NCBI RefSeq assembly: GCF_030384885.1
Contig: NZ_CP128613.1
Reading direction: 5' to 3' (one strand)
From: Escherichia coli
Lineage (GTDB): Bacteria > Pseudomonadota > Gammaproteobacteria > Enterobacterales > Enterobacteriaceae
DNA: 64,000 nucleotides
In this document: piece after piece, positions 21,725-40,241 of the stretch
Layout of the letters: every line of letters starts with the position of its first letter
How positions within the stretch are numbered: position 1 is the first letter of the stretch
Made by a program: the position numbers and the translations under genes
The notes under the pieces: model-generated
What the model was told of the DNA's origin: nothing
The model's database searches: none
What the model saw: only the letters and a program-made list of their open reading frames with translations

Positions 21725-21730
21725 TAGATG

Positions 21731-22015: not shown

Positions 22016-23515
22016 ATGCTAAATTTATTTGTTGGCCTTGATATATACACAGGGCTTTTGTTATTACTTGCTCTGGCATTTGTGTTGTTCTACGAAGCAA
22101 TCAATGGTTTTCATGACACGGCGAATGCGGTGGCAACCGTTATTTATACTCGTGCCATGCAGCCACAGCTTGCCGTGGTGATGGCGGCATTTTTTAACTT
22201 TTTTGGCGTATTGCTAGGCGGACTTAGCGTTGCCTATGCCATTGTCCATATGTTGCCAACCGATTTGTTGCTGAATATGGGGTCAACTCACGGCCTGGCG
22301 ATGGTCTTTTCCATGCTGCTGGCGGCGATTATCTGGAACCTGGGAACGTGGTTCTTTGGTTTACCGGCCTCCAGTTCGCATACCTTGATTGGTGCGATTA
22401 TCGGCATCGGTTTAACCAACGCGCTGTTAACCGGCTCATCGGTGATGGATGCGTTAAACCTGCGTGAAGTGACCAAAATTTTCTCCTCGCTGATTGTTTC
22501 CCCTATCGTCGGCCTGGTCATTGCGGGAGGCCTGATATTCCTGCTGCGCCGCTACTGGAGCGGGACGAAAAAGCGTGACCGTATTCACCGCATTCCGGAA
22601 GATCGCAAAAAGAAAAAAGGCAAACGTAAGCCACCATTCTGGACGCGTATTGCGCTGATTGTTTCCGCTGCGGGCGTGGCGTTTTCGCACGGCGCGAACG
22701 ACGGGCAGAAAGGGATCGGACTGGTGATGCTGGTACTGGTGGGGATTGCTCCTGCTGGTTTCGTCGTCAATATGAATGCGTCCGGCTATGAAATTACCCG
22801 TACCCGCGATGCCGTCACCAACTTTGAACACTATCTGCAACAGCATCCTGAACTGCCGCAGAAGTTGATTGCGATGGAACCTCCATTGCCTGCGGCATCG
22901 ACTGATGGCACGCAAGTAACGGAGTTTCATTGTCATCCGGCAAATACCTTTGATGCGATTGCGCGCGTTAAAACGATGTTGCCAGGTAATATGGAAAGCT
23001 ACGAGCCGTTAAGCGTGAGTCAGCGCAGCCAGCTGCGCCGCATTATGCTGTGCATCTCTGATACCTCTGCGAAGCTGGCGAAACTGCCAGGCGTCAGTAA
23101 AGAAGATCAGAACCTGCTGAAAAAACTGCGCAGCGATATGTTAAGCACCATTGAGTACGCTCCGGTGTGGATCATCATGGCGGTAGCACTGGCGCTCGGC
23201 ATTGGCACCATGATTGGCTGGCGTCGTGTAGCGATGACCATCGGTGAGAAGATTGGTAAGCGCGGCATGACGTATGCGCAAGGCATGGCGGCACAAATGA
23301 CGGCGGCAGTGTCTATCGGCCTTGCCAGTTATATTGGGATGCCCGTCTCCACAACGCACGTCCTCTCGTCTGCGGTAGCAGGGACGATGGTGGTGGACGG
23401 CGGTGGGTTACAGCGTAAAACGGTAACCAGCATCCTGATGGCGTGGGTGTTTACTTTACCGGCGGCGATTTTTCTGTCTGGTGGGTTGTACTGGATAGCA
23501 TTGCAGTTGATTTAA
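22016..23515 (+). CDS. pitB: low-affinity inorganic phosphate transporter
   Basis: Track ORF 499 aa [39 protein letters not shown]... Confidence 0.95.
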
Positions 23516-23563
23516 CCTTCCTGAAAATGCCCGGTCCTGGCGATCGGGCATTTCCATTTTTGA

Positions 23564-24256
23564 CTAGTGATAACCACACGCGGTCATAAAATCCGTAATC
23601 GCTTTTTCTGCATCAACCAGCACCTTTTCCAGTGGCTGATTGGCGTCGATATCAACCAGTTGTGCACCACCAAAGGTTAACTGTGGCGTTATGGCAATCT
23701 TTCTCGCCAGCGATTCCCGTTTATGGTCGGGTTTACGCGCGCAGGCAACTTCAAGGTCAACATTGAGTTTGATAACCAGATCAGGCTTATGGCTCGCCAT
23801 CCAGTGAAATGCTTTACGTTCCTGGCTTGCCAGCCATGAGACAAACCGGCCGCCTTCAACGTTAGGTGGGAACACCGTACCATCGTAAGCGCCAGGAATT
23901 TGGTCCTGAGGATAACGATCGGTTAAGACAATCAGCCCGCGACGACGACAGGCGAGCATATGACGAAAGCGTAACAGTCGGCGGGCGACGAAAGCGGTGA
24001 TCACCAGGGCCGGAACCGGACCCGGCAATTTTTTTGCCGTTTTCACTTCATTTTTTTCAATAGTCTTGTGCAGAGACTTTCCCATCAACGGTAATTTTGT
24101 CACTGCACGACCGACATTTCCGGCCTGTTTTCCTAAATGAACTCTTTCGGCAGCACCATATTTTTCGACAACGGTAATAAGATGTTCACACACCGTTGAC
24201 TTGCCTGAACCATCGCTACCAATAACGGCAATTAATGGAGGTGTTATTGACTGCAT
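23564..24256 (-). CDS. yghT: P-loop NTPase (Walker [11 protein letters not shown]), YghR/S/T paralog family
   Basis: Track ORF 230 aa; shares Walker A, DRYPQ and ARKPDH motifs with the two downstream paralogs. Confidence 0.88.
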
Positions 24257-24429
24257 GAATATATCCTTAAATTTAAATATCCATCAAAAATATTTATTTG
24301 GTTAATATGTTTTTATGAAAGCGTAATTCAGGTCAATGTCACAATTAACCATTGTCACAATAAGGTTGAACGGATATTCTGAGCACGGACCACGTAATAT
24401 TCAATACATTATTTTCTGCCGGGTTTTTC

Positions 24430-25143
24430 GTGAATCAACGTAATATGTCAATAATTAATTCCACGCCAGTGCGTGTTATTGCCATTGTAGGATGTGATGG
24501 TTCAGGTAAATCGACCCTCACGGCAAGCCTAGTAAATGAACTGGCAGCAACAATGCCAACAGAACACATTTATCTCGGGCAATCGTCCGGGCGAATTGGC
24601 GAATGGATTTCACAGCTCCCTGTTATTGGCGCACCTTTTGGGCGTTATCTGCGAAGTAAAGCGGCACATGTGCACGAAAAGCCCTCCACACCGCCTGGCA
24701 ATATTACTGCGCTGGTTATTTATCTGCTTTCCTGCTGGCGGGCGTATAAGTTTCGCAAAATGTTGTGTAAAAGCCAGCAAGGCTATCTGCTCATCACCGA
24801 CCGCTACCCGCAGGTTGAAGTGCCGGGTTTTCGCTTTGATGGCCCGCAACTGGCAAAAAACACGGGCGGTAACGGCTGGATAAAAATGTTAAGACAGCGC
24901 GAGCTCAAACTTTACCAATGGATGGCGTCTTATTTGCCCGTATTGTTGATTCGTCTTGGCATTGATGAACAAACCGCGTTTGCGCGTAAACCTGACCACC
25001 AACTGGCGGCGTTACAGGAAAAAATCGCTGTTACGCCGCAACTGACATTCAATGGCGCAAAGATCCTTGAACTGGATGGTCGGCAACCAGCCGATGAAAT
25101 TCTGCAAGCGTCACTACGCGCAATTCACGCCGCGCTTTCCTGA
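24430..25143 (+). CDS. yghS: P-loop NTPase (Walker A VGCDGSGKST), YghR/S/T paralog family
   Basis: Track ORF 237 aa, GTG start. Confidence 0.88.
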   Translation: MNQRNMSIINSTPVRVIAIVGCDGSGKSTLTASLVNELAATMPTEHIYLGQSSGRIGEWISQLPVIGAPFGRYLRSKAAHVHEKPSTPPGNITALVIYLLSCWRAYKFRKMLCKSQQGYLLITDRYPQVEVPGFRFDGPQLAKNTGGNGWIKMLRQRELKLYQWMASYLPVLLIRLGIDEQTAFARKPDHQLAALQEKIAVTPQLTFNGAKILELDGRQPADEILQASLRAIHAALS

Positions 25144-25173
25144 TCACCAAATGGATAGGGGATGATTTAACGA

Positions 25174-25932
25174 ATGGATGCACTACAAACACAAACTGTT
25201 AATAGTACAACCGCGCCGCAGCCCAACTACATTCCGGGGCTGATTGCGGTGGTCGGGTGTGATGGCACCGGTAAATCCACACTGACCACTGACCTGGTGA
25301 AATCGCTGCAACAACACTGGCAAACCGAGCGCCGCTATCTGGGGCTGCTCTCCGGCGAAGACGGCGACAAAATCAAACGGTTGCCGCTCGTTGGCGTCTG
25401 GCTGGAACGGCGACTGGCGGCCAAATCCTCGAAAACCCAAAGCATGAAAACCAAATCTCCGGCGCTATGGGCGGCGGTGATTATGTACTGCTTCTCGCTG
25501 CGAAGAATGGTGAATCTACGCAAGGTTCAGCGACTGGCGCAAAGTGGCGTTCTGGTGGTCAGCGATCGCTTCCCGCAGGCTGAAATTTCGGGCTTTTATT
25601 ATGACGGACCGGGGATTGGCGTCGAGCGTGCGACCGGGAAAATCAGCATGTTTCTGGCACAGCGCGAACGGCGTTTATACCAAAAAATGGCGCAATACCG
25701 TCCTGAATTAATTATTCGTTTGGGGATTGATATTGATACTGCCATCTCCCGCAAGCCTGACCATGACTATGCCGAGCTGCAGGACAAAATCGGTGTCATG
25801 TCGACGATTGGCTATAACGGCACAAAAATTCTTGAGATTGATTCCAGAGCGCCCTACAGCGAAGTGCTGGAACAGGCACAGAAGGCGGTTTCTCTGGTTG
25901 CAATCGTTTCTGACCGCCGAAGTTTAACTTAA
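25174..25932 (+). CDS. yghR: P-loop NTPase (Walker A VGCDGTGKST), YghR/S/T paralog family
   Basis: Track ORF 252 aa MDALQTQTVNSTTAPQPNYIPGLIAVVGCDGTGKST... Confidence 0.88.
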   Translation: MDALQTQTVNSTTAPQPNYIPGLIAVVGCDGTGKSTLTTDLVKSLQQHWQTERRYLGLLSGEDGDKIKRLPLVGVWLERRLAAKSSKTQSMKTKSPALWAAVIMYCFSLRRMVNLRKVQRLAQSGVLVVSDRFPQAEISGFYYDGPGIGVERATGKISMFLAQRERRLYQKMAQYRPELIIRLGIDIDTAISRKPDHDYAELQDKIGVMSTIGYNGTKILEIDSRAPYSEVLEQAQKAVSLVAIVSDRRSLT

Positions 25933-25977
25933 GGTTGGCGGGATACTTTTTACTATCAACGATAAGGTCAGGCTGAA

Positions 25978-27327
25978 TTGGCGGGGTTTAACATCAAACA
26001 TTGGTTTGCAGATGGCGCGTTTCGCACCATTATTCGCAATAGCGCCTGGTTAGGCTCCAGTAATGTCGTGAGCGCTTTGCTGGGTCTGTTGGCGCTCTCG
26101 TGTGCCGGTAAAGGGATGACGCCCGCCATGTTTGGCGTACTGGTGATTGTGCAATCGTACGCCAAGTCGATCAGCGATTTTATTAAGTTTCAGACATGGC
26201 AGCTGGTGGTTCAGTACGGAACGCCAGCCTTGACCAATAATAATCCGCAGCAATTTCGCAATGTCGTCTCATTTTCCTTCTCGTTGGATATCGTCAGCGG
26301 CGCGGTGGCGATTGTCGGCGGCATTGCCTTACTCCCTTTTCTTTCCCATTCATTAGGTCTGGATGACCAAAGCTTTTGGCTGGCAGCGCTGTATTGCACG
26401 CTCATTCCTTCAATGGCTTCCTCCACACCGACCGGCATTCTGCGTGCGGTAGATCGCTTCGATTTGATTGCTGTACAGCAGGCGACGAAACCTTTTCTGC
26501 GCGCAGCGGGGAGCGTCGTAGCCTGGTATTTTGATTTTGGTTTTGCGGGTTTTGTTATTGCCTGGTACGCATCGAATCTGGTTGGCGGCACCATGTACTG
26601 GTGGTTTGCCGCGCGCGAATTACGCCGCAGAAATATCCATAACGCCTTCAAATTGAATCTGTTTGAGTCTGCCCGACACATTAAAGGCGCGTGGAGTTTT
26701 GTCTGGTCAACCAACATTGCCCACTCCATCTGGTCGGCACGTAACTCGTGCAGCACAGTGTTGGTGGGGATCGTGTTAGGACCCGCTGCCGCCGGGTTAT
26801 TTAAAATCGCCATGACATTCTTCGATGCCGCCGGAACGCCAGCGGGTTTACTGGGCAAAAGTTTTTACCCAGAGGTAATGCGTTTAGATCCGCGTACCAC
26901 CAGACCGTGGTTGTTAGGCGTGAAGTCCGGTTTACTGGCGGGCGGAATCGGTATTCTGGTGGCGCTCGCGGTGTTGATCGTCGGCAAGCCGCTCATTTCG
27001 CTGGTGTTTGGCGTTAAGTATCTCGAAGCGTATGACCTGATTCAGGTAATGCTTGGCGCAATTGTGATTTCGATGCTGGGCTTCCCACAGGAGTCATTGC
27101 TATTGATGGCGGGAAAACAGCGCGCTTTTCTCGTGGCGCAAACCATCGCCTCAATCGGCTACATCGTATTGCTGTTCATGTTCTGTCATCTGTTTGGCGT
27201 GCTGGGGGCTGCATTTGCTTACTTCGGTGGGCAATGTCTGGATGTGGTGCTCTCGTTAATTCCAACCTTAAAGGCATTTTTTCAGCGCCATTCCTTGCTT
27301 TATAACGCAGCCGGAGAGAAATCCTGA
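25978..27327 (+). CDS. yghQ: polytopic inner membrane protein, MOP/Wzx-type flippase-like; start codon uncertain (first ATG in frame at 26116)
   Basis: Track ORF 449 aa (non-ATG start at 25978); many hydrophobic helices; stop overlaps next gene start (TGATG). Confidence 0.8.
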   Translation: MAGFNIKHWFADGAFRTIIRNSAWLGSSNVVSALLGLLALSCAGKGMTPAMFGVLVIVQSYAKSISDFIKFQTWQLVVQYGTPALTNNNPQQFRNVVSFSFSLDIVSGAVAIVGGIALLPFLSHSLGLDDQSFWLAALYCTLIPSMASSTPTGILRAVDRFDLIAVQQATKPFLRAAGSVVAWYFDFGFAGFVIAWYASNLVGGTMYWWFAARELRRRNIHNAFKLNLFESARHIKGAWSFVWSTNIAHSIWSARNSCSTVLVGIVLGPAAAGLFKIAMTFFDAAGTPAGLLGKSFYPEVMRLDPRTTRPWLLGVKSGLLAGGIGILVALAVLIVGKPLISLVFGVKYLEAYDLIQVMLGAIVISMLGFPQESLLLMAGKQRAFLVAQTIASIGYIVLLFMFCHLFGVLGAAFAYFGGQCLDVVLSLIPTLKAFFQRHSLLYNAAGEKS

Positions 27328-28151
27328 TGATGAGAAAATATTTCCCGCTTGAGGCGAGCGAGCGTCTATTTATTGCAGTTGAAGAAGATGATGTCGTTGA
27401 TGCGCAGGTCAGTTTACCGCCGACTATCGCAACAGGTTGTACCACCGAAATCATTCATGATAATTACGCGTTATGCCTGCAATTCTGGCTGAATGGCGTT
27501 GATCGTCAGGAATTACTGCGTTTAATCCACAAACAAGCCAAAGGCGAGGGGCTTACGGCTGACGAGCGTAAACAGTTTAAATATATGCGGGCGCGTTATA
27601 AGCATCTGCGTTTCGCTCAGCGACTGTATCTGAAAAAACACAAGGCAGGATTTTTATTCGGCAAAACGACGGTATGTCTGGGCCATTTTCAGGATGGTTT
27701 CCGTAACGGTAAAAAAAATATTGTGTCGTATTACGGCAACCTGTTACGGATTTATTTAAGCTCTCCGGTCTGGTCGTTGGTGAACTATTCATTACGCCAT
27801 AGCCAGTTAGAAAGCGTAAGCGGTTTTATTGCCTATCGGCAAAAGCAAATGCATACCCTGAAAGAGATAATTGCCAAACCGCGACTAACCGGCAGGGAAT
27901 TTCATGATGTGCGAAAAATCATCAGCCAGCAGGTTTCTTATTACGACACCCTAAGATCGCTTGATCCTGAAAAAAAAGAAGCGTTACAGATTTCCCGCTT
28001 CCTCGCCGCCATTAATGGCCTGATGGGGGATAAACACGACGACATGGTGGCGGATGATATGGAAAACCGCCAGTCGTATGATGCACCGATGGCGCTGGAT
28101 AGCGATATTCGTCAGCGCTTAGAACTGCTGATTTCGCGTTTTCCGCTATAA
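27327..28151 (+). CDS. hypothetical soluble protein, no recognisable motif
   Basis: Track ORF 274 aa MMRKYFPLEASERLFIAVEEDD...; start overlaps yghQ stop; codon usage protein-like. Confidence 0.6.
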   Translation: MMRKYFPLEASERLFIAVEEDDVVDAQVSLPPTIATGCTTEIIHDNYALCLQFWLNGVDRQELLRLIHKQAKGEGLTADERKQFKYMRARYKHLRFAQRLYLKKHKAGFLFGKTTVCLGHFQDGFRNGKKNIVSYYGNLLRIYLSSPVWSLVNYSLRHSQLESVSGFIAYRQKQMHTLKEIIAKPRLTGREFHDVRKIISQQVSYYDTLRSLDPEKKEALQISRFLAAINGLMGDKHDDMVADDMENRQSYDAPMALDSDIRQRLELLISRFPL

Positions 28152-28159
28152 CCGGAGCA

Positions 28160-28723
28160 ATGATGTCATCTCGTTTGATTATTGCGCTGATTATCATGCT
28201 CTTAGCCCCGGGTGTGCAGGCACACAATTTCGTCACGGGTAAAACGGTTACCCCTGTTTATATCCAGGAAGGCGGCGAGCTGCTTCTGAATAGCGACGAC
28301 GAAATTCACTACCAAAAGTGGAACAGCACACAGCTGGCGGGAAAAGTCCGCATTATTCAGTATATCGCCGGGCGTAAGTCGGCGAAGAAAAAGAACTCAC
28401 TGTTAATTAAAGCGGTTGAAGCGGCAAACTTTCCGCAGGATCGTTTTCAGCCCACCACCATTGTGAACACCGATGATGCCATCTTTGGTACTGGCTATTT
28501 TGTCGTTGGCAAAATCGAAAAAAATAAACGCCGCTATCCGTGGGCGCAATTCGTTATTGACGGCAATGGACAGGGACGCGTTGCCTGGCGGTTGCCGGAG
28601 CAGAGTTCAACCATTCTGGTGCTGAATAAAGCCGGGCAAATTCAGTGGGCAAAGGACGGCAGCCTGACGCCGGAAGAGGTAGATCATGTCATTGCGCTGG
28701 CGCAGAAGCTGATCAATGAATAA
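28160..28723 (+). CDS. YtfJ-family periplasmic protein (paralog of core ytfJ), signal peptide MMSSRLIIALIIMLLAPGVQA
   Basis: Track ORF 187 aa; collinear similarity to remembered E. coli YtfJ (shared stretches VVQYIAGR.., TTIVNTDDAI, YPW.QFV.D, WAKDG.LTPEEV). Confidence 0.75.
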   Translation: MMSSRLIIALIIMLLAPGVQAHNFVTGKTVTPVYIQEGGELLLNSDDEIHYQKWNSTQLAGKVRIIQYIAGRKSAKKKNSLLIKAVEAANFPQDRFQPTTIVNTDDAIFGTGYFVVGKIEKNKRRYPWAQFVIDGNGQGRVAWRLPEQSSTILVLNKAGQIQWAKDGSLTPEEVDHVIALAQKLINE

Positions 28724-28752
28724 AAATTCAAAGGATTGAGGGCGTTAGTGAG

Positions 28753-29823
28753 ATGAAGCTGGTTGAACACTACATCATGCGTGGTACTCGCCGTCTGGTG
28801 CTGATTATCGTCGGTTTTCTGATCTTTATTTTCGCCAGCTACTCCGCACAGCGTTATCTGACCGAAGCGGCAAATGGGACATTAGCTCTTGATGTTGTGC
28901 TGGATATTGTTTTCTACAAGGTGCTGATTGCACTGGAGATGTTGTTACCTGTTGGACTGTATGTGTCAGTTGGCGTGACGCTAGGGCAGATGTATACCGA
29001 CTCGGAAATTACCGCTATTTCTGCGGCGGGGGGGAGTCCGGGACGCTTGTACAAAGCCGTTCTTTATCTGGCGATACCGCTAAGTATTTTTGTCACCCTT
29101 CTGTCGATGTATGGTCGTCCGTGGGCTTATGCGCAGATTTATCAACTGGAGCAACAGTCGCAGTCGGAGCTGGATGTTCGCCAGTTGCGGGCAAAGAAAT
29201 TTAACACTAACGATAACGGACGAATGATCCTTTCGCAGACGGTTGATCAGGATAATAATCGCCTGACTGACGTGCTGATTTATACTTCTACTGCCAATCG
29301 AACCCGTATTTTCCGCGCCCGTTCGGTTGATGTAGTTGACCCATCACCCGAGAAACCGACCGTTATGTTGCATAACGGGACCGCCTATCTTCTCGATCAT
29401 CAGGGACGTGACGACAACGAACAGATCTACCGTAATCTGCAATTGCATCTGAATCCGCTGGATCAAAGCCCTAACGTCAAACGCAAAGCAAAATCGGTCA
29501 CGGAGCTGGCGCGCTCCGCCTTTCCTGCCGATCATGCCGAACTGCAATGGCGACAAAGCCGTGGCCTGACAGCATTGTTGATGGCGCTGCTGGCCATTTC
29601 ATTAAGTCGGGTAAAACCGCGGCAAGGGCGATTTTCAACGTTATTGCCACTGACGTTGCTGTTTGTTGCCATTTTTTATGGCGGCGACGTCTGCCGTACG
29701 CTGGTGGCTAACGGCGCGATTCCCCTCATTCCTGGTTTGTGGTTAGTACCCGGACTCATGCTAATGGGCCTGCTGATGCTGGTCGCACGCGACTTCTCTT
29801 TGCTGCAGAAATTTTCCCGATGA
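28753..29823 (+). CDS. LptF-like permease (YjgP/YjgQ family), paralog of core lptF
   Basis: Track ORF 356 aa; N-terminal TM bundle, conserved YTDSEITAISAAG segment resembling LptF LYTESEITVMHACG, large periplasmic insert, C-terminal TMs. Confidence 0.8.
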   Translation: MKLVEHYIMRGTRRLVLIIVGFLIFIFASYSAQRYLTEAANGTLALDVVLDIVFYKVLIALEMLLPVGLYVSVGVTLGQMYTDSEITAISAAGGSPGRLYKAVLYLAIPLSIFVTLLSMYGRPWAYAQIYQLEQQSQSELDVRQLRAKKFNTNDNGRMILSQTVDQDNNRLTDVLIYTSTANRTRIFRARSVDVVDPSPEKPTVMLHNGTAYLLDHQGRDDNEQIYRNLQLHLNPLDQSPNVKRKAKSVTELARSAFPADHAELQWRQSRGLTALLMALLAISLSRVKPRQGRFSTLLPLTLLFVAIFYGGDVCRTLVANGAIPLIPGLWLVPGLMLMGLLMLVARDFSLLQKFSR

Positions 29824-30899
29824 ATGTTTTCAGTCGCTATTTAATCCGTCATCTCTTTCTCGGTTTTGCCGCCGCCGCAGGGCTATTGCTGCCGCTTTTT
29901 ACTACCTTCAACCTGATTAACGAACTGGATGATGTCAGCCCGGGTGGTTATCGCTGGACTCAGGCGGTGCTGGTGGTGCTGATGACCTTACCGCGCACAC
30001 TGGTCGAACTTTCGCCGTTTATCGCCTTATTGGGGGGGATTGTCGGCTTGGGGCAGTTATCGAAAAACAGTGAGCTTACCGCCATTCGCAGCACGGGGTT
30101 TTCTATCTTCCGTATTGCACTGGTGGCGCTGGTTGCCGGGATATTGTGGACTGTTTCATTAGGCGCGATAGATGAGTGGGTGGCGTCGCCATTGCAGCAA
30201 CAGGCGCTGCAAATCAAATCGACTGCCACTGCGTTGGGGGAGGACGATGACATTACCGGCAATATGCTGTGGGCCAGGCGTGGTAATGAATTTGTGACGG
30301 TGAAATCGCTGAACGAGCAGGGCCAGCCGGTGGGCGTGGAGATATTTCATTACCGCGACGATCTCTCGCTCGAATCCTACATTTATGCACGCAGTGCCAC
30401 CATTGAAGACGACAAAACGTGGATCCTGCATGGTGTGAATCATAAAAAATGGCTGAATGGCAAAGAAACGCTGGAAACATCTGATAATCTTGCCTGGCAA
30501 TCGGCCTTCACCAGTATGAATCTTGAAGAGTTATCGATGCCGGGAAATACTTTTTCTGTCCGTCAACTTAATCATTACATCCATTATTTGCAGGAAACCG
30601 GGCAACCCAGCAGCGAATACCGCCTTGCACTGTGGGAAAAACTGGGACAACCCATCTTGACCCTGGCGATGATTTTGCTGGCTGTGCCGTTTACCTTTAG
30701 TGCCCCGCGTTCGCCTGGGATGGGTAGCCGTCTCGCTGTAGGCGTCATCGTGGGCTTACTCACCTGGATCAGCTATCAAATCATGGTCAATCTGGGATTG
30801 CTATTTGCGTTGAGCGCACCTGTTACCGCGCTCGGTTTACCGATAGCGTTTATGCTGGTGGCGTTGAGCCTGGTGTATTGGTATGACAGTCAACATTAA
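29820..30899 (+). CDS. LptG-like permease (YjgP/YjgQ family), paralog of core lptG
   Basis: Track ORF 29739..30899; start trimmed to MNVFSRYLIRHLFLGF (359 aa), ATGA overlap with upstream permease; segment NSELTAIRSTGFS resembles LptG. Confidence 0.8.
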   Translation: MNVFSRYLIRHLFLGFAAAAGLLLPLFTTFNLINELDDVSPGGYRWTQAVLVVLMTLPRTLVELSPFIALLGGIVGLGQLSKNSELTAIRSTGFSIFRIALVALVAGILWTVSLGAIDEWVASPLQQQALQIKSTATALGEDDDITGNMLWARRGNEFVTVKSLNEQGQPVGVEIFHYRDDLSLESYIYARSATIEDDKTWILHGVNHKKWLNGKETLETSDNLAWQSAFTSMNLEELSMPGNTFSVRQLNHYIHYLQETGQPSSEYRLALWEKLGQPILTLAMILLAVPFTFSAPRSPGMGSRLAVGVIVGLLTWISYQIMVNLGLLFALSAPVTALGLPIAFMLVALSLVYWYDSQH

Positions 30900-30933
30900 A
30901 CCCGCCGTGGCGCAGCACCACAGCGGGCTCACA

Positions 30934-32106
30934 TTACTGCTTCAGAGTAGCAAATGCCTGAATGATGGCATCGATTTGCTCACGAGTGTGGGCAGCGTTT
31001 ACGCTACAGCGCAGCAGCGTGATGCCTGCAGGCGCGGCAGGTGGCAGGATAAGATTCACATAAACGCCCAGCGAAATAAGCTCGCGCCAGATGCGTAAAC
31101 CTTCCTCTTTCGAACCGATTATCACTGGCACTACCGGGCTAATATGTGAACTTAACTCGTAACCCAGTTTTTGCAGACCGTCATACAGATGGTTGGCGTT
31201 ATCCATCAGCTTTTGCCGCAACTCTGGTTGTGAGGCAATGGTTCTTAACGACGAGCGCACGGTCGCAATGCAGGACGGAGAAGGAGAGGCGGTAAAAATA
31301 TACGGGCGGCTGCCGTAGCGCAGCACTTCCATCGCTTCCGAACCGACAGCAAAACCGCCAATCGAGGCCAGACTTTTACTGAAAGTACCAACGATAATAT
31401 CCACATCATCTTCAACGCCAACGGCTTCAGCCAGTCCGCGCCCCGTTGCGCCTAACACGCCAAACGAATGCGCTTCATCGACAATCAAATAACCACCGAG
31501 ACGACGTTTGATATCAACAATTTCCGCCAGCGGCGCAATGTCACCGAGCATACTGTAGATGCCTTCAACGATGATAATCGCCTCTTTTGCCCGTTCACCG
31601 AGGCGAACCATGCGCCGTTCCAGATCTTTAGCATCGTTATGGCGGAAACGAATAATTTCCGCTCCACCGAGAGAACAGGCGTCATAAATACTGGCGTGGC
31701 TGTCGGCATCCAGTAACACTACGGCGTTATGGTCGGCAAGTGCGCTGATGACACCTAAATTAGCGGTATAACCGGTTGAAAAAACGATAGCGGTAGGGCG
31801 ATTGAAAAACTCGGCAATTTCTTTCTCTAACGCCAGATGTGGCGCATAGCTGCCATTAGCCATACGAGAACCGGTAGTGCCGGTGCCTTGGGCCGCTAAC
31901 GCTGCCTGACCTTCGGCGATGGCATCATGATTGAAGGTTAAACCGAGATAATTATTGGTCCCGGCCAGGATCACGTTTTTATCGCCGATCCGGCCTTCGG
32001 TGGCGGAATACACTTCATCAATACAGGTACCAAACGGCGTTAACCCGTTGTCACTAAATTGCAGTCGCTCGCCAGCAAGGCGCGCATATTTATCGTATAG
32101 CCCCAT
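30934..32106 (-). CDS. PLP-dependent alpha-oxoamine synthase, serine palmitoyltransferase-like (third AOS paralog besides bioF and kbl)
   Basis: Track ORF 390 aa; PLP-lysine motif IVGTFSKSLASIGG, DEAHSFG motif, glycine-rich GTGTTGSR segment; TAATG overlap with upstream ACP. Confidence 0.85.
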   Translation of the reverse strand: MGLYDKYARLAGERLQFSDNGLTPFGTCIDEVYSATEGRIGDKNVILAGTNNYLGLTFNHDAIAEGQAALAAQGTGTTGSRMANGSYAPHLALEKEIAEFFNRPTAIVFSTGYTANLGVISALADHNAVVLLDADSHASIYDACSLGGAEIIRFRHNDAKDLERRMVRLGERAKEAIIIVEGIYSMLGDIAPLAEIVDIKRRLGGYLIVDEAHSFGVLGATGRGLAEAVGVEDDVDIIVGTFSKSLASIGGFAVGSEAMEVLRYGSRPYIFTASPSPSCIATVRSSLRTIASQPELRQKLMDNANHLYDGLQKLGYELSSHISPVVPVIIGSKEEGLRIWRELISLGVYVNLILPPAAPAGITLLRCSVNAAHTREQIDAIIQAFATLKQ

Positions 32107-32354
32107 TATTTATTCTCCAGCCATGGAAGTAGAGTTTCCATTAATTGCGCAGGGGTTTTGACATCCAGCAGAATATTAATAGGAATGGAAATATCGAATC
32201 TGTCTTCCAGCATCATTAAGAGATCCATCACTTTGATCGACTCCAGGCCAAGATCGTTGACGAGATCGCTGTCGGGCTTAATTTCCACACCGTTTTCGAC
32301 CAAATCCTGTAAACAGGAAAGGATGTAATCCATTACTATTTCACGATTTACCAT
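32106..32354 (-). CDS. acyl carrier protein (dedicated), candidate phosphopantetheine site in DLGLESIKVMDL
   Basis: Track ORF 82 aa; acidic four-helix ACP-like sequence; position between reductase and AOS. Confidence 0.7.
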   Translation of the reverse strand: MVNREIVMDYILSCLQDLVENGVEIKPDSDLVNDLGLESIKVMDLLMMLEDRFDISIPINILLDVKTPAQLMETLLPWLENK

Positions 32355-32385
32355 AGAAACGTTAACACACCTTTAAACAAGACAA

Positions 32386-33300
32386 TCAAAATAGCCCGTT
32401 GCGTAATGCGTGTTCCAGGCTAATCCCGGGAAACCAATTAATATCTTCAGAAATACGGTTATTACTTGCTGACCAGTCGGTGTGGGTTAATTCACGGATT
32501 TTCGAGCGGGTCAGCATAGGTTCTTTACCTGCCAGGCGACTCAACGCGGTACTGATATCCGCAAGGCAGGTGAGTACCGACAGAGGAATACCAACCATTC
32601 GAACGGAACCGCAACGGGCGTCGGCGGCAAGTTGCTGTACGCGTTGCCAGTCATAGCCGCCGGCGACGCCATCGCATAATTCATAGGTTTGCGTCTGTAC
32701 AGTTTCGGCGCTTAACCACTGCCCCACGGCTTGCGCGAAATCGGTGACGTGCAGGAAAGAGAGCTGTGTATCTGGCGCACCAAGTCGTGGCAGCAGGCCG
32801 CGCAGCATCCAGTCAAACAGCGGTTTTAACTCTTTATCGCCGGGACCATACACGGCTGTCGGGCGAAAAATGCCCAGCGTAATTTCGTCAGCCATTGCGG
32901 TCAGTCGTTGTTCGGCGACGTGTTTGGAATTTGCGTACCAGGAGAGTTCGGGATGGCGCGCCGCCAGCGAAGAGATAAACAGAAAACGTTGGCAAAAGCC
33001 GCTCTCTTTTGCCGCTTGCATCAGGCGCAGGCTGCCGTCAACGTTACAGCGGGTAAAAATCTCTTCTTTGTGTCCGCGCACTTGCCCGGCGCAATGGACC
33101 ACCGCGCTGGCTCCGGCAACCAGTTCGCTAAGCGAATGTGTATCTTCCAGCGAACCGCGCACCCAGATGAGATTATCATTGACGTGAGCGCGGGCAGTAC
33201 GCGTCAATGCGCGAACGTGAAAGCCGCGGGCGAGCAGGTTATCGATAATATATTTACCGATAAACCCGGTAGCGCCCGTCACCGCGACAGTTTGATTCAT
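32386..33300 (-). CDS. NAD(P)-dependent reductase of the epimerase/dehydratase SDR type (candidate 3-keto-sphinganine/ceramide reductase)
   Basis: Track ORF 304 aa; N-terminal VAVTGATGFIGKY Rossmann motif, YANSK (YxxxK); ATGA overlap with upstream FAAL. Confidence 0.8.
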   Translation of the reverse strand: MNQTVAVTGATGFIGKYIIDNLLARGFHVRALTRTARAHVNDNLIWVRGSLEDTHSLSELVAGASAVVHCAGQVRGHKEEIFTRCNVDGSLRLMQAAKESGFCQRFLFISSLAARHPELSWYANSKHVAEQRLTAMADEITLGIFRPTAVYGPGDKELKPLFDWMLRGLLPRLGAPDTQLSFLHVTDFAQAVGQWLSAETVQTQTYELCDGVAGGYDWQRVQQLAADARCGSVRMVGIPLSVLTCLADISTALSRLAGKEPMLTRSKIRELTHTDWSASNNRISEDINWFPGISLEHALRNGLF

Positions 33301-35015
33301 GCCATTGATTCCTGCACATGAAGGCTTGCAGCATAACGTTTTTTCGCTTCCGCACGGGCAGGCTTGCCGGAGGACGTTCGGGGAATACTGTGGGGCGGCA
33401 ACAGATCGATAGCCGCTGTTACGCCAAATTCGCTTTGGATCCGTGCTGCCAGTGCGTGGATAAGCTGCCCACGACGTTCTTCGTCGCTGATCCTACACTG
33501 GATCTGCAAAATGATTTTTTCCTGGGCGGTAACAAAAGCAATCGCATCGCCAGAATGAATTTCCGGTTCCTGTTCCGCAATATATTCAATATCCTGCGGC
33601 CAGATATTACGGCCACGAATAATAATCAGATCTTTAATGCGCCCGGTGACATACAGATAACCGTCCAGCAGATAACCGAGGTCGCCGGTATCTAACCAGC
33701 CCGTCGCGGCAATCTCGTCTTGCGAAACCTGGTCGCCAAAGTAACCGCTCATCAGGCTGGGGCCGGAGATGCAAATATGGCCTACCACACGTTCCGCGAC
33801 TGGCATACCTGCTTCATTGCGGATTTCAATGCCATGTTCCGGCAACGCTTTACCGCAGTTGACGAAAGTCGATACGGCGCGTGTTTCAGCACCCGGCGTG
33901 ACGGCTTTGCCCTGATATTCAAGAATGTCGCGATCCACTTCGTTAACCACAACCCCGGAGGCTTCATCAGAGAAGCTGACAGCCAGCGCATTTTCTGCCA
34001 GTCCGTAGCACGGCATGAAAGTTTTATCGTCAAAGTTAACCTGACGGAAACATTCAGCGAATTGATGGAGTTGTTCTGCGGAGATCGGCTCAGCACCAAT
34101 ACCAGCAACGCGCCAGCAGGAAAGATCCAGTTCAGCGAGATCTTTTTCATTCACGCGGCGCTGGCACAATTCATAGCCAAACGGCGGCGCAACGGAAACG
34201 GTGCCGCGATTTTTACTGATCAATTTAAGCCATTGCAGAGGACGCATGGCAAAATCCTGAGTGCGCAAATAATCTACTGAGAGCTGCGTGGCGACGGGGG
34301 TCAGGAGAAAGCCGACCAGTCCCATATCATGGTAGAAAGGCAGCCAGGAGACGCAGCGGTCGCCAGGGCGTAATTTAATGCCATCGTGGCTTATAGCACG
34401 TAGATTAGCCATCACTTCGCGATGGGTGATAATGACGCCACGGGGAAAACGGGTGCTGCCGGAGGTGTACTGGAGGTAGGCGATATCGTTCGGAACTGGA
34501 CGCTGGAGTACAACATCGGCTTCCGGTAATGCCTTAAACCAGGCGTGGCTTAAAACATGTAATTCGGGGTTGTTATGCGTAGCAGCATTGACCAGTGGCA
34601 ACCACTCATCACCAGTGATAATGGCTGCGGGCTGGCAACTTGCCAGTAGACCCTGCAGTTTGGCGCTCCAGGAATCCCGCTGACCGACGCCCATTGGAAT
34701 TGCCAACGGGACGGCGACTAAGCCGGCATACTGGCAGGCAAAAAAAGCCTCTACAAACCCGCTACTCGTTTCGGCAATCAGCGCCACGCGATCGCCTTTT
34801 TTCAGATTCAGTGATAACAACCGCTTCGCACCAGCTTCGGCACGCGCTTTTAACGTCTGATATTCCAGTTGATCTTCAAGTTGGCAACGTCTGTCATAAA
34901 AATTCATTCCGGCGCTACTCAGAGCGGCGTAGTCCAAAGCATCAACCAGCGTTGGAAAATCGGCATAGCGCATAGGTAGGGAATGCGTAAAGATGTTATT
35001 AGACATATACACCAC
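33297..35015 (-). CDS. fatty acyl-AMP ligase / acyl-ACP synthetase (adenylate-forming); start at GTG 35015 or ATG ~35006
   Basis: Track ORF 572 aa; AMP-binding signature YTSGSTRFPRGV, second motif TGDLGY; first gene of the minus-strand operon. Confidence 0.85.
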   Translation of the reverse strand: MVYMSNNIFTHSLPMRYADFPTLVDALDYAALSSAGMNFYDRRCQLEDQLEYQTLKARAEAGAKRLLSLNLKKGDRVALIAETSSGFVEAFFACQYAGLVAVPLAIPMGVGQRDSWSAKLQGLLASCQPAAIITGDEWLPLVNAATHNNPELHVLSHAWFKALPEADVVLQRPVPNDIAYLQYTSGSTRFPRGVIITHREVMANLRAISHDGIKLRPGDRCVSWLPFYHDMGLVGFLLTPVATQLSVDYLRTQDFAMRPLQWLKLISKNRGTVSVAPPFGYELCQRRVNEKDLAELDLSCWRVAGIGAEPISAEQLHQFAECFRQVNFDDKTFMPCYGLAENALAVSFSDEASGVVVNEVDRDILEYQGKAVTPGAETRAVSTFVNCGKALPEHGIEIRNEAGMPVAERVVGHICISGPSLMSGYFGDQVSQDEIAATGWLDTGDLGYLLDGYLYVTGRIKDLIIIRGRNIWPQDIEYIAEQEPEIHSGDAIAFVTAQEKIILQIQCRISDEERRGQLIHALAARIQSEFGVTAAIDLLPPHSIPRTSSGKPARAEAKKRYAASLHVQESMA

Positions 35016-35377
35016 GAAAAAAATTGGATATCAGAAATAAAATGACAATAATGCGGTGGATTATATAGGCATAAAAGATAAATGAGATAGTATTTTCATC
35101 GGTGCGATATTGAACATTGATTTAAATAATAGGTTTGGCTTTGTTGTTTTTATTGTGAATGATATTTAATTTATGAATATATTAAGAAGAAGCCTTGTTT
35201 GGTTGCCTTAAATCGACAAAAGGCATTGAGGCGCTTCTGTGTAGTCTCTGACCTTATCTTAATTATTAATAAATACTATTTATTCTTTGTTTGTATTCAT
35301 TGGGTTGATTATTAAGATGCCGTTCGTTGCTGTTGCAATCTGTTTGTCACCGTTAATTATTTGTTATCCACAGAGAT
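35016..35377. promoter_or_regulatory. AT-rich divergent promoter region between the FAAL operon (-) and yghO (+)
   Basis: ~360 bp strongly AT-rich with A/T tracts; flanked by divergent start codons; typical of H-NS-bound, horizontally acquired regulatory regions. Confidence 0.5.
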
Positions 35378-36520
35378 ATGGAATGCGATCTGCTGATGAT
35401 TAAAATTGAAAAAGTAATTAATAAAAATGACATTAAGGCATTTATCGCTTTTCCGTCATCACTTTATCCCGATGATCCAAACTGGATACCCCCTTTGTTC
35501 ATTGAACGCAGCGAGCATTTGTCGGCGAAGAATCCGGGGACGGACCATATTATCTGGCAGGCGTGGGTAGCAAAAAAAGCGGGGCAGATAGTCGGGCGGA
35601 TTACCGCGCAAATCGATACCTTGCACCGCGAGCGTTACGGTGACGATACCGGTCATTTTGGCATGATTGACGCCATTGATGATCCGCAGGTTTTTGCCGC
35701 TTTGTTTGGCGCAGCGGAAGCATGGTTGAAGTTACAAGGTGCCAGTATGATCAGCGGGCCTTTCAGCCTGAATATCAATCAGGAAAGCGGATTACTGATT
35801 GAAGGTTTCGACACTCCGCCCTGTGCGATGATGCCGCACGGTAAACCGTGGTATGCCGCGCATATTGAACAATTGGGTTATCACAAAGGTATTGATTTAC
35901 TGGCGTGGTGGATGCAACGAACCGATCTCACTTTCTCTCCGGCGCTAAAAAAACTGATGGATCAGGTACGCAAAAAGGTGACCATTCGTTGCATCAATCG
36001 TCAGCGGTTTGCTGAAGAGATGCAGATCCTGCGTGAGATTTTCAACTCTGGCTGGCAGCACAACTGGGGATTTGTGCCGTTTACCGAACATGAATTCGCT
36101 ACCATGGGCGATCAACTAAAGTATCTGGTACCGGACGATATGATCTACGTCGCTGAGATTGGTTCTGCACCCTGCGCGTTTATTGTCGGCTTGCCGAACA
36201 TCAACGAGGCGATTGCCGATCTGAACGGATCGCTCTTTCCCTTCGGCTGGGCAAAATTGCTGTGGCGCTTAAAAGTCAGCGGTGTGCGAACTGCGCGAGT
36301 GCCGCTGATGGGCGTGCGTGACGAGTATCAGTTCAGCCGCATCGGCCCGGTGATTGCGCTGTTATTGATTGAAGCCTTACGCGATCCGTTTGCTCGCCGG
36401 AAGATCGATGCGCTGGAAATGTCATGGATCCTCGAAACCAATACAGGCATGAATAACATGCTGGAACGCATTGGAGCGGAGCCGTACAAGCGTTACCGAT
36501 TGTATGAAAAGCAGATTTAA
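35378..36520 (+). CDS. yghO: YghO, full-length; candidate N-acyltransferase (GNAT/FemAB-like fold suspected, not verified)
   Basis: Track ORF 380 aa MECDLLMIKIEKVINKNDIKAF...; position between the lipid operon and glcC. Confidence 0.75.
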   Translation: MECDLLMIKIEKVINKNDIKAFIAFPSSLYPDDPNWIPPLFIERSEHLSAKNPGTDHIIWQAWVAKKAGQIVGRITAQIDTLHRERYGDDTGHFGMIDAIDDPQVFAALFGAAEAWLKLQGASMISGPFSLNINQESGLLIEGFDTPPCAMMPHGKPWYAAHIEQLGYHKGIDLLAWWMQRTDLTFSPALKKLMDQVRKKVTIRCINRQRFAEEMQILREIFNSGWQHNWGFVPFTEHEFATMGDQLKYLVPDDMIYVAEIGSAPCAFIVGLPNINEAIADLNGSLFPFGWAKLLWRLKVSGVRTARVPLMGVRDEYQFSRIGPVIALLLIEALRDPFARRKIDALEMSWILETNTGMNNMLERIGAEPYKRYRLYEKQI

Positions 36521-36658
36521 TACCAGATCCCATTAAGCGCACGGACGGTCATTCGGGAGAGTGTATAGATGAACAGATTTAACATCAGATCCTATTAAGC
36601 GCAGGGGCGGTCCCCTCGCCCCTCAGGGAGAGGGTTAGGGTGAGGGGGAAAACTCGGC

Positions 36659-37429
36659 TCACATTCCCCCCTTGTTCATCTCCAGTGGCACCGCCGAGCG
36701 AATCAAATGGTGGCCTTCCAGTTCGATATCGTGGAGATTCTTTTTCACGGTCCGCACATGATCACGTGCGGCGCGCTGGGCGACGTGCGGCAGTCGCTGC
36801 AACACCGCGTTGTAGATCCGCGCATGTTGGCGATCGATCTGCTTTTTTTGCTGTGGTCGATGGTAGAGATTATTTACGCTGGCAAACACTGAATTAAACA
36901 TCAGATCGGTCAATGATTGCAGCGTAAAAACTAGCACCTGATTGTGGGAAGCCTGACAAATGGCAAGATGGAAAGCATGATCCAGCTGCGCGTGTTCGAT
37001 CAGCGAAATTTCTTTGTTGTTTTCACTGGCGGCGAGCATTTTTTCATAACAGCGGGTTATCAAAACAAAATCCGCCTGGGTTCCCAGCGTAGCTGCCAAC
37101 CTTGCCGATTCGCCTTCCAGCAATGCGCGAACGTCGAGTAGATCGTATAGCGTTCGCGGCTGTGTACTGAACAGATGGATCAGCGGGCTGGTGTCCTGCA
37201 CGCGATTAAGGCGTGCGACACGAGAATCGCGCCCCTGTGCTGTTTCAATAATCCCGCGTCCGCGCAGCACGGTCAGCCCTTCACGCAGTGCGGAACGCGA
37301 GAAGCCGAGCTTTTCACACAGTCGACGCTCCGAAGGAAGCGGCTGACCGACCTTCAGCACGCCGTCGATAATTAACCGTTCGATACTCTCTGCAACCACT
37401 TCGCAAATAGGGCGACGTTCATCTTTCAT
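36659..37429 (-). CDS. glcC: GntR-family activator of the glycolate operon
   Basis: Track ORF 36659..37489; start trimmed to MKDERRPICEVVAESIERLIIDG. Confidence 0.93.
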   Translation of the reverse strand: MKDERRPICEVVAESIERLIIDGVLKVGQPLPSERRLCEKLGFSRSALREGLTVLRGRGIIETAQGRDSRVARLNRVQDTSPLIHLFSTQPRTLYDLLDVRALLEGESARLAATLGTQADFVLITRCYEKMLAASENNKEISLIEHAQLDHAFHLAICQASHNQVLVFTLQSLTDLMFNSVFASVNNLYHRPQQKKQIDRQHARIYNAVLQRLPHVAQRAARDHVRTVKKNLHDIELEGHHLIRSAVPLEMNKGGM

Positions 37430-37679
37430 TCCCGGACCTCGTGCACAGGTAGGACCAATTTTTCTGTTCTTGATTCGCAAAACACGCACATCACGTAAGT
37501 GATTATGTTACATCAATTTAACATTAAGTTAACCAAGGCAAGGTCACAGAGCTGGAAAAAAAATGGTCTGACCGGTAGCTAAAGAGATAGACGAAAACGA
37601 AAAGCCCGCTTAATAACTGTTCACAGAAGCAGCGCGCAAAAATCAGCTGCCACACAACACAACAAAGCGAACCCTACTC
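37430..37679. promoter_or_regulatory. glcC / glcDEFGBA divergent promoter region
   Basis: Intergenic between divergent glcC and glcD; known regulated promoter pair in E. coli. Confidence 0.5.
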
Positions 37680-39179
37680 ATGAGCATCTTGTACGAAGAG
37701 CGTCTTGATGGCGCTTTACCCGATGTCGACCGTACATCGGTACTGATGGCACTGCGTGAGCATGTCCCTGGACTGGAGATCCTGCATACCGATGAGGAGA
37801 TCATTCCTTACGAGTGTGACGGGTTGAGCGCGTATCGTACGCGTCCATTACTGGTTGTTCTGCCTAAGCAGATGGAACAGGTGACGGCGATTCTCGCTGT
37901 CTGCCACCGTTTGCATGTACCGGTAGTGACCCGTGGCGCAGGCACCGGACTTTCTGGCGGTGCGCTGCCGCTGGAAAAAGGTGTGTTGTTGGTGATGGCG
38001 CGCTTTAAAGAAATCCTCGACATTAACCCCGTTGGTCGCCGTGCGCGTGTGCAGCCGGGCGTGCGTAACCTGGCGATCTCCCAGGCTGTTGCGTCGCATA
38101 ATCTCTATTACGCGCCGGATCCTTCCTCACAAATCGCCTGTTCCATTGGCGGCAACGTGGCGGAAAACGCCGGGGGCGTCCACTGTCTGAAATATGGTCT
38201 GACCGTACATAATCTGCTGAAAATTGAAGTGCAAACGCTGGATGGCGAGACACTAACGCTGGGATCGGACGCGCTGGATTCGCCCGGTTTTGACCTGCTG
38301 GCGCTGTTCACCGGATCGGAAGGCATGCTCGGCGTGACCACCGAAGTGACGGTAAAACTGCTGCCGAAGCCCCCTGTGGCACGAGTTCTGTTAGCCAGCT
38401 TTGACTCAGTAGAAAAAGCCGGACTTGCGGTTGGCGACATCATCGCTAATGGCATTATCCCCGGCGGGCTGGAGATGATGGATAACCTGTCGATCCGCGC
38501 GGCGGAAGATTTTATTCATGCCGGTTATCCCGTCGATGCCGAAGCAATTTTATTATGTGAGTTGGACGGCGTGGAGTCTGATGTACAGGAAGACTGCGAG
38601 CGAGTTAACGACATCTTACTGAAAGCGGGCGCGACTGACGTCCGTCTGGCGCAGGATGAAGCGGAGCGCGTGCGTTTCTGGGCCGGTCGCAAAAATGCTT
38701 TTCCAGCGGTAGGACGTATTTCCCCGGATTACTACTGCATGGACGGCACCATCCCGCGCCGCGCGTTGCCTGGCGTACTGGAAGGCATTGCCCGTTTATC
38801 GCAGCAATATGATTTACGCGTTGCCAACGTCTTTCATGCCGGAGACGGCAATATGCACCCGTTAATCCTTTTCGATGCCAACGAACCCGGTGAATTCGCC
38901 CGTGCGGAAGAATTGGGTGGGAAGATCCTTGAACTCTGTGTTGAAGTAGGCGGCAGTATCAGTGGGGAACATGGCATCGGGCGCGAAAAAATCAATCAGA
39001 TGTGCGCCCAGTTCAACAGTGATGAAATTACTACCTTTCATGCAGTCAAGGTGGCGTTTGATCCTGATGGTTTGCTGAACCCTGGGAAAAACATCCCCAC
39101 ACTGCACCGCTGCGCTGAATTTGGTGCCATGCACGTGCATCACGGTCATTTACCTTTCCCTGAACTGGAGCGTTTCTGA
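37680..39179 (+). CDS. glcD: glycolate oxidase FAD-linked subunit
   Basis: Track ORF 499 aa MSILYEERLDGALPDVDRTSVLMALREHVPGLEILH... Confidence 0.96.
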   Translation: MSILYEERLDGALPDVDRTSVLMALREHVPGLEILHTDEEIIPYECDGLSAYRTRPLLVVLPKQMEQVTAILAVCHRLHVPVVTRGAGTGLSGGALPLEKGVLLVMARFKEILDINPVGRRARVQPGVRNLAISQAVASHNLYYAPDPSSQIACSIGGNVAENAGGVHCLKYGLTVHNLLKIEVQTLDGETLTLGSDALDSPGFDLLALFTGSEGMLGVTTEVTVKLLPKPPVARVLLASFDSVEKAGLAVGDIIANGIIPGGLEMMDNLSIRAAEDFIHAGYPVDAEAILLCELDGVESDVQEDCERVNDILLKAGATDVRLAQDEAERVRFWAGRKNAFPAVGRISPDYYCMDGTIPRRALPGVLEGIARLSQQYDLRVANVFHAGDGNMHPLILFDANEPGEFARAEELGGKILELCVEVGGSISGEHGIGREKINQMCAQFNSDEITTFHAVKVAFDPDGLLNPGKNIPTLHRCAEFGAMHVHHGHLPFPELERF

Positions 39180-40231: not shown

Positions 40232-40241
40232 GGAGCAGGCT

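Follow-up and report, generated by a model that had tools for sequence, protein, structure and literature searches.

The sphingolipid region of Caulobacter crescentus has reportedly been described by Olea-Ozuna and co-workers in 2021 and by Stankeviciute and co-workers in 2022. Its CC_1152–CC_1168 interval contains second copies of LptC, LptF and LptG together with a flippase, for which a role in sphingolipid transport to the outer membrane has been proposed (PMC11324152). In Escherichia coli BL21(DE3), the genes ECD_02850–ECD_02854 correspond to yghO/aca, aasR, epi, acpR and spt (Padilla-Gomez et al., 2022, PMC9386255). According to that paper, Spt (the orthologue ECD_02854 was assayed), AcpR and AasR have been shown biochemically to make 3-oxo-sphinganine via acyl-AcpR, which is the preferred substrate of Spt; YghO (ECD_02850) is an orthologue of the Caulobacter N-acyltransferase, or ceramide synthase, CC_1154 (44% identity, E = 1e-107), and ECD_02852 (epi) resembles CC_1164 (34% identity, 94% coverage; Table S2 of the same paper). 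Here we describe the same locus in a stretch of 64,000 nucleotides of E. coli DNA (RefSeq assembly GCF_030384885.1, contig NZ_CP128613.1), further referred to as the window, and reconstruct its loss in the K-12 lineage, where an insertion sequence (IS), IS5, occupies its place.

We read positions 27046–35417 of the window as the centre of a conserved 13-gene ceramide locus, extending from yghT to yghO, that was destroyed stepwise in the K-12 lineage, and assign to this reading a probability of roughly 85%. The finding is already known, having been published in separate pieces, with ceramide function reported in 2021–2022, the gene block of strain NCM3722 described in 2011, and that of strain WG1, in 2023. 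Added here are the link between those literatures, the base-level reconstruction of the junctions, the prior nonsense codon in yghQ, and the population frequencies. The literature searched contained no explicit mention of ceramide genes being removed by the K-12 IS5 deletion; this does not prove that none exists. The initial annotation of the window, made from the sequence alone, spoke of a locus that had escaped functional study in the reference strain. The locus has not gone unstudied: the products of spt, acpR and aasR have been characterised in BL21(DE3) (PMC9386255), and the extra DNA appears in two further publications (PMC3045373, PMC9997739).

The gene order in the window has been taken from the list of open reading frames (ORFs) and from the annotation of a near-identical record, E. 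coli 2013C-4282 (NZ_CP027579.1), which over 20 kb departs from the window by two single-nucleotide polymorphisms and one single-base indel. Along the window follow pitB, yghT, yghS, yghR, yghQ, eight genes, yghO and glcC; as the initial annotation states, there are eight genes and no IS between yghQ and yghO. The features are as follows.

23564–24256, minus strand: yghT, P-loop kinase-like; outer end of the conserved module; kept in K-12
24430–25143, plus strand: yghS, P-loop kinase-like; kept in K-12
25174–25932, plus strand: yghR, P-loop kinase-like; kept in K-12
25978–27327, plus strand: yghQ, membrane protein of the MOP/polysaccharide-flippase family; 449 amino acids (aa), intact
27327–28151, plus strand: 274-aa hypothetical protein, soluble; start overlaps the yghQ stop
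28163–28723, plus strand: YtfJ-family protein (TIGR01626) with an N-terminal signal-peptide-like sequence
28753–29823, plus strand: LptF-like permease paralogue (TIGR04407), 356 aa; intact in the window
29820–30899, plus strand: LptG-like permease paralogue (TIGR04408), 359 aa; start overlaps the end of the LptF-like gene
30934–32106, minus strand: spt, serine palmitoyltransferase (NF047599)
32106–32354, minus strand: acpR, specialised acyl carrier protein, 82 aa; abuts spt
32386–33300, minus strand: epi/CerR, probable reductase of the NAD-dependent epimerase/dehydratase family, with SDR-type matches
33297–35006, minus strand: aasR, fatty acyl-AMP ligase/acyl-AcpR synthetase (NF006624)
35007–35377: divergent intergenic region between aasR and yghO, 371 bp, AT-rich (GC about 0.41); inside the DNA lost from K-12
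35378–36520, plus strand: yghO, orthologue of Caulobacter CC_1154; 380 aa, intact
27046–35417: segment missing from MG1655-type K-12 and replaced there by one 1,195-bp IS5; left boundary ambiguous by 1 base

The BL21(DE3) locus has the same position and gene order, being colinear with the window at 96.4% identity. The passages of PMC9386255 that were searched present the genes as belonging to 'E. coli B', and its text mentions neither K-12 nor IS5, whereas we find the segment in 75% of complete genomes and map the K-12 gap to the base. Like Caulobacter, E. coli has five ceramide genes in one cluster (epi being the probable CerR), along with additional LptF and LptG paralogues and a flippase-like protein. 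The E. coli locus differs in the absence of genes for the ceramide phosphoglycerate head group (the Caulobacter kinase CpgB is of the diacylglycerol (DAG)-kinase type, unlike YghR, YghS and YghT) and of a recognisable LptC2, and has instead three P-loop kinase-like genes, the YtfJ-like protein and the 274-aa protein.

Spt matches the NF047599 equivalog model over its full length (599.9 bits at a cut-off of 500) and belongs to the proteobacterial type; acpR is located just upstream in the same operon, and its product, WP_000248097.1, is identical to AcpR of BL21(DE3). The acyl-AMP ligase, encoded in one operon with epi, acpR and spt, scores 873 bits with NF006624 (cut-off 600), and the SDR-type (short-chain dehydrogenase/reductase) matches of epi in the window are all below family cut-offs. 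YghO has no match in Pfam, NCBIfam or PDB. With the enzymatic roles taken from the literature, aasR, epi/cerR, acpR and spt constitute, together with the N-acyltransferase gene yghO, a ceramide synthesis set.

In MG1655 (NZ_CP097881.1) the order is pitB, yghT, yghS, yghR, truncated yghQ (1,065 bp, marked incomplete), IS5, yghO, glcC, so that the K-12 map given in the initial annotation, glcC-yghO-IS5-yghQ-yghR-yghS-yghT-pitB, is correct. BLAST aligns MG1655 to window positions 21000–27046 (96.8% identity), 35418–36526 and 36674–41000, and the element between the aligned blocks is a complete 1,195-bp IS5 with the inverted ends GGAAGGTGCG…CGCACCTTCC. The alignment shows that all eight genes are absent from MG1655, with IS5 at the junction and both yghQ and yghO truncated. 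The missing segment was thus correctly located in the initial annotation, while its limits, set there at 27327–35377, require revision: the BLAST alignment and the junction sequences place the absent DNA at 27046/27047–35417, about 8.37 kb. This loss covers the last 94 codons of yghQ, the eight genes, the divergent intergenic region and the 40 bp with which yghO begins. As a result, yghO of K-12 is without its promoter region and first 13 codons, and the annotated K-12 YghO starts within IS5, with MISYQGLVRTF-LNKND… replacing MECDLLMIKIEKVI-NKND….

The MG1655 IS5 is flanked by TTAG on the left and by TTAA on the right (the latter corresponding to window positions 35418–35421, in yghO). The 4-bp direct repeats expected of a simple IS5 insertion are absent from these flanks, so that the element is not a simple insertion with a 4-bp duplication. 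At the same time, the IS is kept at the novel joint, the genes on both sides of it are truncated, and the intervening DNA is present in close relatives, as expected for an IS-associated deletion; BL21(DE3), in particular, is colinear with the window and has flanks 99.4–99.9% identical to those of K-12. As genes are truncated on both sides, it is K-12 that lost the DNA, and not the other strains that gained it. These data support the conclusion, anticipated in the initial annotation, that K-12 lost the ceramide gene module through an IS5-associated deletion, with IS5 located exactly at the deletion.

The left IS5 site has a history of its own. Codon 356 of yghQ (27043–27045) is CAG in the window and TAG in K-12, which explains why K-12 YghQ has 355 aa and, as had been supposed, is shorter than the 449-aa frame of the window. 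Accordingly, the left site reads TCAG in the window and in BL21(DE3), whose flank is 99.86% identical to that of K-12, and TTAG in K-12 itself. A 30-mer combining the variant T with the normal downstream yghQ sequence, with the variant base included in every 28-base word, was used as a query, and matched nine genomes (from chicken, pork, fish, faeces and human gut) that have the TAG variant without the IS5-junction sequence. Over the 6,048 bp of the left flank, strain L9 matches MG1655 at 100.000% identity, and it lacks IS5 at this site; its yghQ runs 37 bp past the IS5 site, where a different deletion reaches gspL (junction …GCTGGGCTT joined to TATGGC…, read in L9 only). The same truncated-yghQ/gspL arrangement is annotated in TUM12357 and EC06. 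These three strains, the ones inspected of the nine, carry the K-12 yghQ stop codon, K-12-identical flanking proteins, and an IS-less deletion from yghQ codon ~368 to gspL beside a pheV-type island.

The occurrence of TAG without IS5, observed directly in nine genomes of wild relatives, indicates that the nonsense change is natural and older than IS5. The target consensus published for IS5 is C(A/T)A(G/A) (PMC11677980), and TTAG is closer to it than TCAG; the nonsense mutation may have created the IS5 target.

Moreover, K-12 has a second allele of the locus. WG1 (NZ_CP099590.1, Palo Alto), an early K-12 stock reached via a survey match, and NCM3722, identical to it over the locus, share the left junction of MG1655 (…CCTGATTTAG followed by IS5, with the IS5 end GGAAGGTGCG). 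At their right junction IS5 is followed by TTAATTAAAGCGG, that is, by window position 28403 (TTAA at 28403–28406) within the ytfJ-like gene, and only 1.36 kb is lost. This first IS5 of WG1 stands between TTAG and TTAA, hence also without a duplication. Both strains retain the LptF-like and LptG-like genes, spt, epi, the ligase gene and an intact yghO, and have a second IS5 in the 3' end of acpR, with a perfect TTAA duplication (window 32141–32144). The three IS5 copies (that of MG1655, and the first and the second ones of WG1) are identical.

Related alleles that share one IS junction and differ at the other are a further sign of an IS-associated deletion. The junction sequences, common on the left and different on the right, are read directly from the genomes. 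One left junction combined with two right junctions, each at a TTAA contiguous with intact sequence, implies that the left IS5 was fixed first, and that rightward DNA was lost at least twice within the K-12 pedigree. Our data hence support a stepwise loss inside this pedigree. The simplest reading proposed in the initial annotation holds in its IS5-associated part; its single event does not, given the 1.36-kb allele of WG1/NCM3722 and a TAG codon older than IS5.

Parts of this DNA have been reported before. For NCM3722, '7 kb of new sequence' restoring yghO was described (Lyons et al., 2011, PMC3045373), holding a bioF-like gene, an acyl-CoA synthase, an epimerase, an IS5-interrupted pantetheine-binding protein and two yjgP/yjgQ permeases; for WG1, an IS5-flanked gene block was described (Browning et al., 2023, PMC9997739). 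These are the same genes that MG1655 lacks at the yghO IS5, with the same restored yghO and the same IS5 in the gene of the pantetheine-binding protein. Neither paper recognises the sphingolipid genes as such (PMC3045373 considered biotin synthesis, and PMC9997739 names lptG, acpP and oleD), and the passages searched contain neither the junction logic (common left junction, absence of a duplication, prior TAG) nor population frequencies. The rfb-50 (IS5 in wbbL) and rfb-51 (deletion) alleles provide a parallel: another K-12 envelope-lipid pathway was inactivated differently in the MG1655/EMG2 and WG1/NCM3722 lines, again with the involvement of IS5 (PMC9997739, PMC3045373). The difference is that rfb-50 is a simple, repairable insertion, while at the ceramide locus MG1655 has lost about 8.4 kb of coding sequence.

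The history that we propose would start with the CAG-to-TAG change at yghQ codon 356, creating TTAG, where IS5 would then have inserted. Subsequently, DNA to the right of IS5 would have been lost up to a TTAA, either through an adjacent deletion mediated by IS5 or through recombination between this IS5 and a second copy. The loss would have extended over 1.36 kb, to position 28403, in WG1/NCM3722, and over 8.37 kb, to position 35418, in the EMG2/MG1655/W3110 line; WG1/NCM3722 would also have gained the IS5 in acpR. The order of the insertion and the deletions, the molecular mechanism of deletion, and its timing during laboratory storage are what we infer. IS5 transposes mainly by a copy/paste mechanism (PMC11677980).

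A one-step loss in MG1655 is possible, if on balance doubtful. It assumes that the yghQ TTAG and the yghO TTAA each held an IS5, both oriented alike, and that homologous recombination between the two removed everything in between, the WG1/NCM3722 allele being an independent parallel event. The product would be exactly the observed state, one IS5 between TTAG and TTAA; given identical IS5 copies, the recombinant would leave no trace, and the second copy in WG1 demonstrates that the K-12 pedigree did put several IS5 copies into TTAA sites of the locus. On the other hand, we found no strain with IS5 at 35418 and retained upstream genes: all 353 genomes with this junction are of the deleted type, and yghO is intact in the five genomes of the WG1 type. 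Moreover, the one-step model still requires that the common left IS5 came first, and so is a variant of the stepwise history and not an alternative to it. Differences between IS5 copies, considered as a means of telling adjacent deletion from recombination, turned out to be uninformative, all copies being identical.

The frequencies are direct counts over 5,426 complete E. coli genomes, searched with the 8,371-bp segment. Any match was obtained in 4,267 genomes, and at least 80% of the segment is present in 4,063 (75%). The carriers include BL21(DE3), REL606, E. coli C, NCTC86, H10407, 042, UTI89, O111:H8 strains and ST131 JJ1886; BL21, H10407, 042, UTI89, JJ1886 and the O111:H8 strains presumably represent several phylogroups. 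The K-12 left junction is found in 347 genomes and the MG1655-type right junction in 353; among the matches listed for the latter, 60 out of 60 are K-12 laboratory derivatives (C600, J53, RR1, HMS174, BW25113 etc.). The WG1-type junction is found in five genomes, WG1, NCM3722, CY598, CY706 and CY708, of which we take the CY strains to be NCM3722 derivatives. One more class, 296 genomes, has the O157:H7-type junction, an IS remnant beside truncated pitB.

The divergence of the segment from other strains (95–97% identity) equals that of its flanks, and no mobility genes or repeats bound it. The segment behaves as ancestral chromosome and not as an island, and its presence is the ancestral and majority state in E. 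coli. The reverse polarity, with the K-12 arrangement ancestral and the 8 kb gained by other E. coli as an island, would fit the bare presence/absence pattern and nothing more; gene truncation at both K-12 junctions already rules it out (yghQ without 94 codons, yghO without 13 codons and its promoter region), and it is further contradicted by the presence of the segment in 75% of genomes from what we assume to be several phylogroups, by divergence equal to that of the flanks with no bounding mobility genes or repeats, and by the same 13-gene order in Erwinia. We regard it as extremely improbable.

The distribution of the junctions also bears on when the deletions occurred. They might predate the laboratory, if the 1922 isolate was already mixed or if WG1-type and MG1655-type alleles both circulate in nature, and the natural yghQ nonsense change in nine wild isolates implies that decay of the locus began before isolation. 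Still, an early origin of the deletions themselves is unlikely: the MG1655-junction genomes are K-12 laboratory derivatives in 60 out of 60 of the matches listed, the five WG1-type genomes are WG1, NCM3722 and the three presumed NCM3722 derivatives, and the search with the left junction (n = 347) revealed no wild isolate with IS5 at the yghQ site.

Several observations weigh against the stepwise destruction of a ceramide locus as we reconstruct it. The simple-insertion intermediate (TTAG-IS5-TTAG with intact downstream DNA) is absent from the collection, where the left junction, at n = 347, is no more frequent than K-12 strains. Adjacent deletion and recombination between IS5 copies are indistinguishable because the copies are identical. 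The T-first sites at the locus fit only three of the four positions of the C(A/T)A(G/A) consensus; the second IS5 of WG1, with its TTAA duplication, demonstrates that T-first TTAA sites do get used. About 700 genomes without the segment fall outside the named classes. Finally, BL21(DE3) with empty vectors yielded no detectable 3-oxo-sphinganine, and overexpression was required, according to PMC9386255.

The locus has been lost in other lineages as well. In O157:H7 Sakai (NC_002695.2, 3850000–3880100) the pheV island SpLE3 (espL2, nleB1, nleE, efa1') directly adjoins truncated pitB, and the entire stretch is absent that elsewhere holds the type II secretion genes, sslE, the glc operon, yghO and the sphingolipid locus. 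Independent losses involve IS1 in F11, FORC_082, TUM9812 and PCP06238, and IS26 in NR1430. The extents of IS1- and IS26-bounded deletions differ, covering yghT–yghO in F11, gss–yghO in FORC_082 and yghT–sslE in TUM9812, while in NR1430 an IS26-flanked fragment has moved elsewhere. Some E. coli contigs contain fusion ORFs, YtfJ-LptF (553 aa), LptF-PitB/PHO4 (450 aa, 34 contigs), AMP-binding-LptF (556 aa) and LptF-T2SS-F, which are probably traces of additional alleles with a deletion or a frameshift. IS-mediated loss has repeatedly affected the locus (IS5, IS1, IS26 and the O157:H7 pheV-island deletion), a pattern suggesting that in some niches it can be dispensed with or carries a cost.

By analogy with Caulobacter, YghQ, the LptF- and LptG-like permeases and the YtfJ-like protein are presumed to form an export apparatus. 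The scores of the latter three exceed the family cut-offs: 323 bits against 230 for the LptF-like protein (TIGR04407), 308 against 240 for the LptG-like one (TIGR04408), and 212 against 151 for the YtfJ-family protein (TIGR01626). In PDB, the LptF-like protein scores about 94 bits with E. coli LptF structures and about 116 bits with the best-matching LptF structures, which we take to be those of Pseudomonas aeruginosa and Vibrio cholerae. No ABC (ATP-binding cassette) ATPase corresponding to LptB is encoded by the 13 locus genes. The LptF-like protein is therefore an old paralogue, as are LptF2/G2 of Caulobacter, and not part of the lipopolysaccharide (LPS) exporter itself. Thus, the locus shares with the LptB2FG LPS exporter the paired LptF/LptG permeases, and differs from it in having neither the LptB ATPase nor close identity to the housekeeping LptF.

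Two candidate assignments were considered for the remaining genes. The 274-aa protein found no support as an LptC2 equivalent: it has neither a signal nor an anchor sequence, looks soluble and produces no match in Pfam, NCBIfam or PDB. YghR, YghS and YghT were rejected as counterparts of CpgB, the Caulobacter ceramide kinase, which has an LCB5/DAG-kinase domain, while these three have only weak dTMP-kinase-like P-loop matches, that of YghT being below the family cut-off.

Orthologues of the LptF-like protein (65–76% identity) are present in Citrobacter, Hafnia, Shimwellia, Sodalis, Serratia, Erwinia and Raoultella. Homologues of yghT, yghS, yghR and yghQ are found in Erwinia persicina and Serratia proteamaculans side by side with the spt operon and the genes for the hypothetical protein, YtfJ, LptF and LptG, flanked by unrelated genes. 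Erwinia persicina also has a yghO homologue and the same 13-gene order (identity 76% for YghO, 57% for the hypothetical protein and 73% for YghT). In Serratia proteamaculans the spt operon is located on the other side of the yghT-like gene, which indicates that the module has been rearranged while staying together.

The joint occurrence of these genes in Erwinia and Serratia supports yghT–yghO as one module. Tentatively, at somewhat less than even odds, we suggest that the 13 genes form one functional unit, with which most wild E. coli would make a ceramide-based lipid, modify it (YghR, YghS, YghT and the 274-aa protein) and export it to the outer membrane (YghQ, the YtfJ-like protein and LptF2/LptG2). 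No report of native sphingolipid production by E. coli was found in the literature searched, which does not prove its absence. If the one-unit reading is true, yghO, yghQ, yghR, yghS and yghT of K-12 are dead remnants, and the K-12-based textbook lipidome misses a class of lipids which three quarters of strains are able to produce.

At this locus the K-12 reference is a degraded representative of the species. MG1655-type K-12 cannot make the products of the locus, having a chimeric yghO with an IS5-derived start, truncated yghQ and orphaned yghR, yghS and yghT, and K-12-based screens and annotation say little about these five genes. E. coli sphingolipids should be studied in BL21, E. coli C or a wild isolate. 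Restoration of the locus in MG1655 would take about 8.4 kb and repair of the yghQ stop codon; in NCM3722 or WG1 it would be smaller, comprising 1.36 kb, the stop codon and removal of IS5 from acpR.

The window differs from NZ_CP027579.1 by the polymorphisms at positions 26199 and 39052 and by an extra G at 29028. With this G the LptF-like gene is intact in the window, and the same gene is annotated as frameshifted in NZ_CP027579.1; the frameshift is either a sequencing mistake in that record or a mutation that truly inactivates the gene.

Between yghO and glcC the window has a 147-bp insert (36527–36673), in place of which K-12 and BL21(DE3) have a gap of 6–9 bp. With its imperfect direct repeat (AGATCC[C/T]ATTAAGCGCA…) and a palindromic stretch rich in G (CCCCTCGCCCCTCAGGGAGAGGGTTAGGGTGAGGGG), the insert resembles a small intergenic repeat element; its core occurs once in the window.

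Identity of at least 99% to window positions 24000–38000 is observed in only 13 of the 5,426 complete genomes, almost all others being at 95–97%, and the glc flank of the window is about 94.7% identical to that of K-12. The E. coli lineage behind the window is an uncommon and fairly divergent one.

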